Made by a program: the position numbers and the translations under genes
The notes under the pieces: model-generated
What the model was told of the DNA's origin: nothing
Seen by the model: only the letters and a program-made list of their open reading frames with translations
Databases searched by the model: none
Assembly (NCBI GenBank): GCA_048940445.1
Contig: JBHLON010000003.1
Coordinates: 50,626 to 114,625 of the forward strand
Origin: Promethearchaeota archaeon
GTDB taxonomy: Archaea > Asgardarchaeota > Lokiarchaeia > Sigyniarchaeales > SOKP01
Reading direction: 5' to 3'
Length of the DNA: 64,000 bases
Part shown: piece by piece, positions 12,371 to 15,982 of the stretch
Layout: every line of letters starts with the position of its first letter
Position numbering within the stretch: position 1 is the first letter of the stretch

Positions 12371-14152
12371 ATGAGCAACTTAATAATTAAAAATGGATTT
12401 GTATATGACCCGCTCAATAAAATCGACGGCGAAAAGAAAGATATCTACATTAAAGATGGACTCATTGCCGAAAAAGTTAATACCGACGCAAAAGTAATCG
12501 ATGCTTCTGGAATGGTAGTGATGCCGGGTGGTGTTGATATGCATACCCACATCGCTGGACCCAAAGTCAACATTGGACGAGCTCTACGACCCGAAGATAA
12601 AGTCCCTGAATCAAACCTAAAGAAAACTAAGACTACACGATCTGGAACAGGTTTTAGCGTGCTCAGTACATGGTATACCGGTTATAAGTACGCCCAAATG
12701 GGCTATACTACAGCTGTTGAACCTGCAATGCCACTTCTCGAAGCTCGACACACCCATGAAGAATTCCTTGAAATTCCAATCATCGATAAAGCTGCCTTAC
12801 CCATATACGGAAATAATTGGTTCGTCCTGAAATATATACGCGACAATGATATTGATAAACTCACTGCTTACGTGAATTGGATACTCCAAGCAACCAAAGG
12901 ATATGCCATTAAAATCGTAAATCCCGGAGGGGTAGAAAACTGGGCATGGGGAAATGTGTGGCTTTTTATAGTCTGCACCCTAGAAAATTGTGAAAGTTTA
13001 GATGACCTAGTTTTCCATTGGAGCGTAACGCCTCGAAAGATTATTGAAAGTTTGGCAAAGGTTGCTGAGATTTTGAAACTGCCACATTCAATCCATGTTC
13101 ATTGTAATAATTTAGGGCATCCAGGAAACTTCAAGCATTCCCTTGAGACATTTAAAGTTTGCGAGAGCATAAAAGCTAATAATGGTCGAAAAACAAGTCT
13201 TCATGTAACCCATTGTCAATTTAATGCATACGGTGGTACAAATTGGAATGATTTCACCTCTGGAGCCGGTGAGATTGCCGAATACGTAAATGCACATAAG
13301 CATCTTACCATTGATTGCGGTCAAGTAGTATTTACTAAATATGCAACCACTACGATGACTGGAGACGGACCATGGGTCACAGATGAGTATCTTGTCTGTG
13401 CATGAAAGTTCGCGCTCCATCATTTAGGTGGGTATTCCAGCTGGGGTTCAAAGCCAGGCATTAAGTGGGTCAACGGGCAAGTAGAGGCAGAGTCAGGTTC
13501 GGGTATCGTGCCCTATTTTTTTGATCCTAAAAATAGTGTGAATGCGGTTCAATGGGCGATAGGTCTGGAGTTGATGCTTCTGATAAAGGATCCGTTTCAA
13601 ATTGGCTTTTCCACTGATCATCCAAACGGAGCGCCCTTTACCACTTATCCGATGGCGTTCAAATGGTTGATGGATCGAAAAAGTCGAGACGAGATGCTCA
13701 AGAATTCGGTCCATAAGAAGGCAAGTACAGCATCGACTTTATCTGATCTTGATAGAGAATTATCGCTCTACGAGCTTGCAATTGTCACACGAGCCGGTAC
13801 TTCGAAGATTCTTGGGATGAGGGATCGCGGTCATCTGGGTGTGGGAGCTCTTGGAGACGTTTCGGTATATAAATTAAACCCAAATAACTATACGGGACAT
13901 GATATTGAGAAGGCGTTTAGTTCGACAGCATACACAATTAAAGAAGGCACAATCGTGGTAAAGGATGGGGAAATCACGGCAGCTCCAATGGGAACTTTAC
14001 TGCGTGCTGAAGGCACACTAAAGGAGAATCTTATGGAGGAGATGCTTGATGACGTGCGCCATAGCTGGAGAGACCATTATAGCATAAACTTCAATAACTA
14101 TGCGGTTCAGGATGCTTACGCACCAAAAGAGAAAGTATTCAGAGGAAATTAA
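12371..14152 (+). CDS. fwdA: Formylmethanofuran dehydrogenase subunit A; join(12371..12953,12984..13376,13407..14152), 573 aa after removing two 30-nt introns
   Basis: PGGVDMHTHIAGPKVN, IKIVNPGG, LPHSIHVHCNNLG, HVTHCQF, TTMTGDGP, STDHPNGAPF. ORFs 12371 and 13508 are the same frame, separated by one TGA lying inside an insertion. Confidence 0.95.
12954..12983 (+). other. Putative 30-nt BHB-type mRNA intron 1 in fwdA
   Basis: GGGG-AA^A-TGTG...TGCA-CCCT-AG^A; excision turns WG-NVWLFIVCTLE-NC into WGKNC; outer exon helix is weak. Confidence 0.8.
13377..13406 (+). other. Putative 30-nt BHB mRNA intron 2 in fwdA (contains in-frame TGA)
   Basis: GGAC-CATG-GG^T-CACAGATGAG-tat-CTTGTCTGTG-CATG-AA^A-GTTC is a full BHB; excision gives GPWEFALHHL. 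Confidence 0.92.
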
Positions 14153-14161
14153 TTTTTTCTT

Positions 14162-15982
14162 TTATTTTTTTCTATTTAGGAATTCAACTTTATTATTTGT
14201 TTTCCAATATCCATTCGGTGGCATCTTAATATTCCATTCGCTTCTTAATTTGTGAAATGTACTTTTTGATGTAGAAAAGCGATCAACCAATTCATAATTA
14301 CGATATTGATATACTAGATCTTGAAGCTCTTGTTTATTGATACCCAAGTTTTTAAGTTTCATCTTTAAGTTTTCAAATGCTACACGTGATTCCGAAAAAT
14401 GTTTATCTTTTCTTTCTAATACTTTAATGTTTGATTTTTTACATAGATTTGTCATTTTATTAAAATATTTTGCCCCAACAAATAAAGAATATTGAGCTTG
14501 TTGCAAGTGTATCTTTCCACTTTTATCTTTATAGTATTTTGATTCAATAGTTCTTAAAATTGAATTATCTACATTCAATGCATGTTTCATTCTAACTAAG
14601 AATTGTTTGGAGGTAGAACAGATACGGGTAGTTCCACTAAATCCATCTCCATCATAATAACCTCGGATATAACCCATTAATAATTCTTTTTTTGAATTCA
14701 TATTAACTCCTTTTGGAATATCTTGTTTATAAAATTTTGGTAGTGATTTTCTTTTTGCCTTTGAAGAGCTGAAACCTTGTAATTCCAGATCTTTAGCAAT
14801 TTTATTATTTACAAAATTTAAATAAGCGTAATTATGGGATTTTCCCGTTTTATAATGATTTCTGGTTCTATATCTGATACGATTTTTATCTATTCCTATG
14901 TCTTGACATAATCTTTTTATTAGGACATCATCTTTTTTTGATAATTCTATGAAGATAACTTTCTTAGGAGTTTTTCTTTTGGTTTTAATTCCATTTTTGT
15001 AATAATGTTTCTTAGTCATAACACTTCCATCAGCCATCAAAAATCCGAGCCAATAAGCTTTTTGAAGAGTATTGATTTTGTTAAAATAGTTTATTTTCAA
15101 GTTGGGTTTATGCAAGTGCCATTGTTGGCAAGACTTATCTTTTAAGTCAGTATGGTGGCTAACATAACTGTTAATATGATTAACAAGGTTTTTAGCTTTC
15201 TCATTTGGAAAGTTAGATTGTATATTTTTTATGAATCTATTCAGAATTTCTTTAGAGAATTTATATATTGGATTATATAGTTTAGAATTTGGATTAAATC
15301 TTGGCATTATAGCTTGTTGGATGTAATCATATCCTTTCTTGCTGTTGATGTCATAAATATATTTGCTTAATTTCCAGTAAGATAATTCATCACGGTATTT
15401 TTCGTTTGGGACGAGTTTTCCGACTTCTTTTCGTAGTTTTTCGACGAGCCATAAGGTTGAGTACTTGGGGAGTATATTTCCTTGTTTATCTTTTATGATA
15501 TCGTTATTATGTTGTTTTGTAGAGGAGGGTTGTTTTATTTCATTATTTTTGGAGAATTTTTTATAGAGAAGGGCATCTTTGGGGTTAATAATTTTATTTT
15601 TTGATTTAATATTGTTGGTTAGCTGTGGTGGTTGGATTTTGTTGAAACTTGGATGTTTAAGTTCGGATTTGTTCTTGGAAGGTTTGTTGGGAGAGATTAA
15701 GATTCCTTTGGGTATTTTTAGTTTGGGGATACCTTTTGGATCAAGCCCCCAGCATTTGGGAGGTGGGGATATATCATTAATTTTGGGGTTGAGAATATCT
15801 TCTGGTGAGACTATTCTTGGATCAAGAATTTTGTTGTACTGAGGCGTGGTATAAGAACCAGATGGGTATTTAGGATGAGTTATTTTATTATGGGGGGTGT
15901 CTTCCTCCTGGATTTCAGGGTTGTGGAGTTCTTCTTTGATATCTTTTTTCGGGGATTGTGATTTACATTTACATTTTTCCAT
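14162..15982 (-). CDS. Free-standing LAGLIDADG homing-endonuclease-family protein with long low-complexity N-terminus
   Basis: Two motifs, AYWLGFLMADGSV and YIRGYYDGDGF; C-terminal IKMPPNGYW. Confidence 0.85.
   Translation of the reverse strand: MEKCKCKSQSPKKDIKEELHNPEIQEEDTPHNKITHPKYPSGSYTTPQYNKILDPRIVSPEDILNPKINDISPPPKCWGLDPKGIPKLKIPKGILISPNKPSKNKSELKHPSFNKIQPPQLTNNIKSKNKIINPKDALLYKKFSKNNEIKQPSSTKQHNNDIIKDKQGNILPKYSTLWLVEKLRKEVGKLVPNEKYRDELSYWKLSKYIYDINSKKGYDYIQQAIMPRFNPNSKLYNPIYKFSKEILNRFIKNIQSNFPNEKAKNLVNHINSYVSHHTDLKDKSCQQWHLHKPNLKINYFNKINTLQKAYWLGFLMADGSVMTKKHYYKNGIKTKRKTPKKVIFIELSKKDDVLIKRLCQDIGIDKNRIRYRTRNHYKTGKSHNYAYLNFVNNKIAKDLELQGFSSSKAKRKSLPKFYKQDIPKGVNMNSKKELLMGYIRGYYDGDGFSGTTRICSTSKQFLVRMKHALNVDNSILRTIESKYYKDKSGKIHLQQAQYSLFVGAKYFNKMTNLCKKSNIKVLERKDKHFSESRVAFENLKMKLKNLGINKQELQDLVYQYRNYELVDRFSTSKSTFHKLRSEWNIKMPPNGYWKTNNKVEFLNRKK

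Follow-up and report, generated by a model that had tools for sequence, protein, structure and literature searches.

The gene for subunit A of formylmethanofuran dehydrogenase (fwdA; 12371–14152, forward strand) in the Promethearchaeota genome studied here very probably carries, within its mRNA, an archaeal bulge-helix-bulge (BHB) intron of 30 nt at 13377–13406. Introns of this sort usually occur in tRNA, and fwdA is an essential gene of carbon metabolism. Positions refer to the window, that is, the whole 64,000-nt stretch of contig JBHLON010000003.1 (GCA_048940445.1) that was analyzed; the genome holding it (G000) measures 3.64 Mb and is 93% complete. Other genomes of the genus are designated by G numbers, loci by L numbers and contigs by C numbers, and the genus survey covered 42 genomes, 33 of which had a fwdA match at E ≤1e-100. 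The BHB interpretation is strongly supported by what was observed of the structure of the insert, its exact register, its conservation and covariation, the selection on the exons and the presence of the splicing enzymes.

The fwdA gene consists of a single frame whose sole break is the TGA at 13403–13405, as the sequence-only reading that preceded this work had proposed. Under translation table 11, the list of open reading frames (ORFs) gives two ORFs in this same frame, at 12371–13405 and 13508–14152. The part before the stop matched positions 2–321 of the NCBIfam profile TIGR03121 with 463.7 bits, the cut-off for the whole protein being 392.75, and the part after it matched positions 330–555 with 276.6 bits. 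Because they match successive parts of the profile, the two ORFs can be taken as consecutive pieces of one FwdA, and the full-length profile match above the curated cut-off places the protein in the FwdA family (TIGR03121/NF042911). Only one copy of fwdA was found in G000. The parts of the gene on which the following analysis centers are these:

12371–13376, forward strand: fwdA exon 1, with the N-terminal TIGR03121 match and a ratio of nonsynonymous to synonymous substitution rates (dN/dS) of 0.037 against G017; it contains the candidate second intron at 12954–12983.
13366–13412, forward strand: complete hBHBh' motif, supported by the minimum-energy fold and by covariation in 10 sequences.
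13377–13406, forward strand: BHB intron of 30 nt with the in-frame TGA at 13403–13405, a clean 10-codon insert relative to homologues whose predicted junction equals intron-less DNA.
13407–14152, forward strand: fwdA exon 2, stop codon included, with the C-terminal TIGR03121 match and a dN/dS of 0.011.

The minimum-energy RNA fold of 13355–13425 was a strict BHB (−26.4 kcal/mol, z = −3.53), and none of 200 shuffled sequences was as stable. In this fold, an exon helix (h) of 5 bp is formed by CGGAC (13366–13370) and GUUCG (13408–13412), and a central helix (H) of 4 bp by CAUG (13371–13374) and CAUG (13401–13404), while the intron helix (h') comprises 10 bp between 13378–13387 and 13391–13400, closed by a UAU loop. 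Two bulges of 3 nt each, GGU (13375–13377) and AAA (13405–13407), lie on opposite strands and flank the 4-bp CAUG/CAUG helix, as in substrates of the splicing endonuclease EndA, and both flanking helices, h and h', of the strict hBHBh' motif are present. The fold that had been proposed from the sequence, with GGT and AAA bulges, CATG/CATG and a 10-bp hairpin, was thus recovered as the energy minimum. The exact position at which the endonuclease cuts inside a bulge is after its second base. Applied to fwdA, this rule removes 13377–13406 and joins the codons TGG G|AG TTC, which read W-E-F.

Both strands of the genome were searched with a purpose-built scanner for the hBHBh' geometry. The strict motif (h ≥5, H 4, h' ≥10) at an intron length of 30 occurred at one of 7,263,320 genome positions, namely the fwdA site. 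A relaxed scan returned 104,286 BHB hits, of which 280 were ORF-restoring, a term reserved for cases with at least 70 open codons on either side after removal and a stop soon past the 5' site without removal. The two best of these, with scores of 49 and 44, stood out from the rest, which reached 29 at most; the fwdA site is the one with 44. Two further groups of hits were discarded. ORF-restoring hits longer than 100 nt consisted of weak AT-rich helices spanning intergenic gaps and were rejected as chance, and 8,650 in-frame, stop-less BHB-like hits (scores ≤41, no outliers) were not counted; those inspected, at C3:44892-44915 (ATP synthase A subunit), on C82 (a PhoU-like gene) and on C58 (a membrane protein), look like coding hairpins.

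Comparison with homologues placed the insert at exactly the predicted boundaries. All eight database FwdA proteins in the alignment (A1) lacked precisely the 10 intron codons, and the 14 intron-less loci of the genus that were read had the DNA …CCN TGG GAR TTY GC…, which is the predicted joined sequence; L006 was identical to the predicted junction …CCATGGG|AGTTCGC…. The junction obtained in silico with symmetric cuts therefore equals the DNA of intron-less homologues, and the earlier expectation that relatives would show a clean 30-nt indel was borne out. No homologue was found that carries the 10 residues as protein, an observation that would have told against the proposal, and a stop was present in the insert of every carrier.

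A single internal TGA was present in three of the 33 genus genomes with fwdA (G000, G017 and G035), and the other 30 had no internal stop. A search aimed at the intron-encoded tail retrieved five database ORFs of 332–337 aa that end 7–10 residues past DGPW, truncated ‘FwdA’ entries of the kind that had been anticipated from automated annotation. Furthermore, a degenerate DNA pattern (exon motif, gap of 26–56 nt, exon motif), which detects inserts of 20–50 nt only, returned four loci in genome contigs and five in metagenome contigs, all with a 30-nt insert at the same site; two of the four genome-contig loci were identical to G017 and G035 over the compared stretch. In total, the distinct carrier sequences numbered 10, from three genus genomes, two further genome contigs and five metagenome contigs. 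Given this recurrence in separate genomes and contigs, the insert is not an assembly artefact.

These 10 sequences were aligned without gaps, and base pairs were counted. BHB pairing was found in 88.9% of the cells, compared with 23.7–40.5% when the partner was slid by 1–3 columns. Ten of the 19 pairs had changed on both sides, accounting for 26 cells, and none of 500 shuffles reached this covariation score. Pairing amounted to 100% in h, 97.5% in H and 80% in h', the last being made of quite different sequences among the carriers, with both partners changed in nine of its 10 pairs. One covarying pair of the central helix, UA in five sequences and AU in four, links the synonymous third base of a proline codon of exon 1 with an intron base.

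Between G000 and G017, both of them carriers, dN/dS was 0.033 overall, 0.037 in exon 1 and 0.011 in exon 2, with saturated dS (above 1); by these ratios, both exons are under strong purifying selection. The first 33 full codons of exon 2 (13409–13507) contain no ATG, GTG or TTG in frame, and they differ from G017 at 20 of 99 nt and at 2 of 33 aa. Since this stretch is conserved as protein without a start codon, the 33 codons after the junction appear to be translated as a continuation of exon 1.

The enzymes of this type of splicing are encoded in G000. The EndA domain PF01974 was found at two loci (104.2 and 72 bits), which hold paralogues of about 200 aa, and the ligase RtcB (PF01139) at one locus (560.4 bits). 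The EndA paralogues map to the regions G000:C3:34241-34465 and C62:31241-31489, and RtcB to C94:60701-62002. The Tyr/His/Lys motif context expected of a catalytic subunit is present in one EndA paralogue, with the His missing from the other; because of this combination, the pair fits the alpha-beta type of EndA with broad specificity that has been described for Asgard archaea (PMC5829648), most of whose genomes have two EndA paralogues (bioRxiv 10.64898/2026.10.13.758758). With one cut per bulge, as reported in the latter source, the same cutting rule was applied to two tRNA introns of G000. It yielded an 84-nt class II tRNA-Ser(UGA) with the anticodon loop CUUGAGA at C94 and a tRNA-Gly(GCC) with the loop CUGCCAC at C101, both loops being of 7 nt with U33 and a purine at position 37.

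With regard to tRNA genes more generally, ARAGORN reported only 13 in G000, six of them with introns, and it set one intron 2 nt off, so that the class II tRNA-Ser(UGA) was called tRNA-Thr. Most tRNA genes of this genome are probably too interrupted for detection. The best named protein matches were metagenome-assembled genomes labelled Promethearchaeota, Lokiarchaeota and Hermodarchaeota, and these labels and the low tRNA count agree with what would be expected of an intron-rich Asgard lineage.

The sequence-only reading had described one part of the phenomenon, which extends to at least two more genes of G000, to many lineages in the case of fwdA and to a second insert within fwdA itself. 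The site with the top score of 49 lies in an AIR-synthase-like gene that carries the Pfam domain AIRS_C (G000:C61:8911-8940, forward strand; L021:1412-1441). Here, a 30-nt intron contains an in-frame TAA and, like that of fwdA, has a strict BHB as its minimum-energy fold; its removal gives …CGFHV-T-RAALRD…, as in intron-less relatives. An internal stop was present in eight of the 36 genus genomes with a match, the same site and fold being verified in five, and three sequences from three species displayed three compensatory pairs and 98.6% pairing.

The third gene is a uvrA-like paralogue with a 31-nt, frame-shifting BHB-like intron (G000:C63:31206-31236, reverse strand; L038:2307-2337). Its removal gives FSFNEPSG-M-CLACKGRG, which matches the homologue pattern FSFNEPSG-M-CLxCKGRG. 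Of the 14 loci read, 10 have this sequence, and three besides G000 either have the insert or were not displayed. A short open frame was observed in four of the 28 genus genomes with a match, and the intron was verified in three; besides G000, it occurs in G002, in G010 and probably in G053. H and h' were fully paired (100%), the canonical exon helix is only 3 bp long, and the minimum-energy fold favours a 7-nt 3' bulge. Carriers differ from gene to gene, which gives the introns a patchy distribution in the genus. The three introns of G000 are unlike each other in sequence, and a blastn-short search of 13355–13425 against G000 returned only the query itself and three chance matches of 13–14 nt. 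We also considered whether CATG…CATG might be a target-site duplication left by a miniature transposon and discarded the idea, as AUGU/GCGU and CUGG/CCAG in the other introns are not direct repeats, and it is also contradicted by the CUUG/CAAG central helix of other fwdA carriers.

Within exon 1 of fwdA, a further insert was found:

12954–12983, forward strand: candidate second intron of 30 nt with a relaxed HBh' motif, in frame and without a stop, missing in homologues and with a partial fold.

This insert lies between …NWAWG and NCESL… and encodes the hydrophobic sequence NVWLFIVCTL. It is present in G000 only; G017, G035 and the remaining homologues lack it, and they have the sequence G-K-N that its removal would give. 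The central helix would pair GGGG (12948–12951) with CCCU (12978–12981), next to a 5' bulge AAA and an h' composed of UGUG/UGCA and GGCU/AGUC; h' has 4–8 bp in the right register and the exon helix 1 bp. The minimum-energy fold displays H, bulge and h' parts, a comparable motif occurs at a given 30-nt site with a frequency of 2.6e-4, and two registers give the same product. The insert is known from one genome only, and as it has no stop, it could also be translated. We put its being a relaxed HBh' BHB intron at somewhat short of an even chance; otherwise, it would be a very recent hydrophobic insertion of 10 residues.

From these results, the following course of events can be proposed for the fwdA transcript. 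The primary transcript would fold such that exon 1 forms h with exon 2 and H with the intron's 3' end, leaving the two 3-nt bulges on opposite strands. EndA, seemingly as an alpha-beta heteromer, would cut after the second base of both bulges, and RtcB would ligate the exons, thereby generating the Glu codon G|AG and a continuous FwdA frame of 573 codons; the 30-nt intron would be freed, probably as a circle. Across the junction, spliced FwdA would read …GDGPWEFALHHLGG… (DGPWEFALHH), and if the second insert were also removed, the frame would match homologues throughout. In unspliced RNA, translation would end at the TGA at 13403–13405, giving a fragment of 344 residues that ends …VTDEYLVCA (GPWVTDEYLVCA), and the conserved C-terminal 248 residues would not be made.

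Several observations weigh against this interpretation. Among the 10 carriers, L069 has one mismatch in the central helix, and in L061, L062, L065, L067 and G035 only 1–2 contiguous base pairs of h' follow the bulge before a mismatch or a small internal loop. In the three closest carriers of the fwdA insert taken alone, covariation is weak: a single pair shows changes in both partners, a result matched by 341 of 500 shuffles. EndA is apparently an alpha-beta heteromer, the subunit roles having been read by eye from motifs, and we infer the cutting and joining of fwdA RNA on comparative evidence. In addition, all sequences are metagenome-assembled genomes or metagenome contigs, with no cultured strain among them.

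Three other explanations were weighed against removal of the insert as a BHB intron by EndA and RtcB. The insert might be removed from the RNA by another nuclease and ligase, or by some activity that recognizes the hairpin; EndA and RtcB are predicted to act at this site, and in animals, inverted-repeat insertions are excised from mRNA in an RTCB-dependent manner (PMC12779559). We regard this as very unlikely, given that the insert has the exact geometry of an EndA substrate, with 3-nt bulges, a 4-bp helix and symmetric cuts, that the same rule correctly processes two tRNAs of G000 and that this genome encodes both enzymes. A shade less likely again is a broken or split fwdA, in which a palindromic insertion has made a pseudogene or the halves are separate polypeptides formed without RNA joining. 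Two ORFs are indeed obtained under table 11, and public gene callers give the N-terminal half as a protein of 332–337 aa. However, the low dN/dS of 0.037 and 0.011, at saturated dS, has been maintained since divergence from another carrier species, the 33 post-stop codons have no start codon and yet show two amino acid against 20 nucleotide differences, and the register-exact BHB is kept in 10 sequences; moreover, this is the sole fwdA copy, while fwdB and fwdC are intact, and a split gene does not explain the frame-shifting 31-nt insert of the uvrA-like gene.

The least likely of the three is recoding, in which the TGA would be decoded as selenocysteine or tryptophan or be passed by read-through, with the 10 residues kept, or in which the ribosome hops over the insert, as in the precedent of phage T4 gene 60. 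A read-through product would carry …GPWVTDEYLVCA-X-KFALHH…. Although the insert is in frame, as a multiple of three, and a stable hairpin spans the stop codon, no homologue has the insert residues as protein, and the stop type is not conserved, TAA replacing TGA, for example, in L061 and L062 and in the AIR-synthase-like gene of G000. Selenocysteine or stop recoding is characterized by one stop type and flanking residues conserved as protein, and this combination was not found. Furthermore, the conserved Glu codon arises only by joining G|AG, the unspliced in-frame codon after the stop being AAG, the uvrA-like insert measures 31 nt, and covariation between exon and intron in the exact BHB geometry is not required by recoding.

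In a maximum-likelihood tree of the exon-1 protein with 41 rows, 12 of them with the insert (L019 and L020, whose motif was not matched by the regular expression, and L068, with 199 aa below the 250-aa limit, were left out), the insert required at least eight changes, six of which are forced by well-supported branches, and the carrier lineages are scattered. The fwdA introns fall into three sequence types that are much better conserved than synonymous exon sites, and the distribution of these types disagrees with the FwdA tree. In L062, L065, L066 and L067, introns are identical at 26–30 of 30 positions, and third codon positions are 39–62% identical, as the following pairs illustrate:

L062 versus L067: intron 30/30 identical, third codon positions 50%.
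L066 versus L062: intron 26/30 identical, third codon positions 39%.
L066 versus G000, from the same large FwdA clade: intron 17/30 identical, third codon positions 46%.

The exons of L066 are about 93% identical to those of the intron-less G015 (L010), and these two rows form one exon class. The differences between them cluster in the first ~12 bases of exon 2, where L066 gains an outer GAG/CUC helix and resembles other carriers of its intron type. These data point either to strong selection for the intron sequence accompanied by many losses or to its spread from lineage to lineage, and we rank neither above the other; the many changes on the tree, the conservation of the intron and the pattern in L066 are arguments for spread or homing-like co-conversion over simple vertical loss. 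A bolder idea, which we consider possible and on balance rather doubtful, is that the 30–31 nt inserts are mobile BHB mini-introns colonizing Asgard coding genes at positions whose flanking exons can provide half of the motif, with EndA and RtcB acting as an mRNA repair system that neutralizes the insertions.

As to its surroundings, fwdA stands alone in the window, flanked by an ABC permease gene, a small membrane-protein gene and a LAGLIDADG-like ORF. The fwdC and fwdB genes are adjacent and intact on another contig (G000:C110:58518-60590, reverse strand). The ORF directly downstream of fwdA is the following:

14162–15982, reverse strand: neighbouring ORF with LAGLIDADG-like motifs, outside the intron, with a weak match to Pfam LAGLIDADG_3.

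Its product of 606 aa contains two LAGLIDADG-like motifs as well as an extended N-terminal region rich in Lys, Asn and Pro, and the LAGLIDADG_3 match is sub-threshold (E 2.7e-4; 21.6 bits versus a cut-off of 22.5).

A BHB intron in crenarchaeal cbf5 pre-mRNA was reportedly described by Watanabe and coworkers in 2002. The case of cbf5 in Crenarchaeota (Yokobori et al. 2009, PMC2738675) resembles that of fwdA in that a BHB intron lies in coding sequence, in a host with hetero-oligomeric EndA, and is patchily distributed among related species through gain and loss; as of 2020, it was given as the only BHB intron known in a coding gene (PMC7714728). What differs here is the gene, fwdA, the phylum, Asgard, the occurrence in at least three genes of one genome, the uniform mini-introns of 30–31 nt and, for fwdA, the presence of the intron in lineages scattered over the FwdA tree. 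In Haloferax volcanii, the 5' untranslated region (5'UTR) of the HVO_1309 mRNA is likewise an EndA substrate, there proven in vivo and in vitro (PMC7714728); that intron lies in an untranslated leader and leaves the reading frame intact, whereas the fwdA intron lies in coding sequence and contains a stop. The rarity of BHB introns in mRNA that had been assumed at the outset agrees with the literature found, which gives crenarchaeal cbf5 and this one Haloferax 5'UTR. The BHB introns of Asgard tRNAs (bioRxiv 10.64898/2026.10.13.758758) share motif, enzyme, lineage and repeated gains with the fwdA intron; that preprint concerns tRNA genes, and the term ‘mRNA’ is absent from its main text. In the literature searched, supplements aside, BHB introns were reported neither from fwdA nor from any protein-coding gene of Asgard archaea. 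The fwdA case is a new, multi-gene and multi-lineage Asgard instance of a known mechanism.

Unconventional splicing of HAC1/XBP1 mRNA is independent of the spliceosome and employs the nuclease IRE1 and an RtcB-type ligase. The splicing of transposons out of animal mRNAs, termed SOS splicing (PMC12779559), is alike in that a structured segment is excised, joining is of the RTCB type and the frame is restored. Both systems differ from the one proposed here in the nuclease (IRE1 or unknown), in the structure recognized and in being eukaryotic; the resemblance lies in how they operate and implies no common family. In eukaryotes, the families of EndA and RtcB, represented by TSEN and RTCB, have some mRNAs among their substrates as well.

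Genes of this kind come out of automated gene calling split or shortened, which may lead to fwdA being wrongly listed as absent or pseudogenic when the Wood-Ljungdahl pathway of Asgard archaea is reconstructed; the AIR-synthase-like and uvrA-like genes are exposed to misannotation in the same way. If the interpretation is correct, splicing of coding mRNA by EndA and RtcB would extend from crenarchaeal cbf5 to several Asgard genes, in which stops and frameshifts would make splicing obligatory for expression. It would also make recently gained and lost introns accessible to study in coding genes of the closest prokaryotic relatives of eukaryotes.

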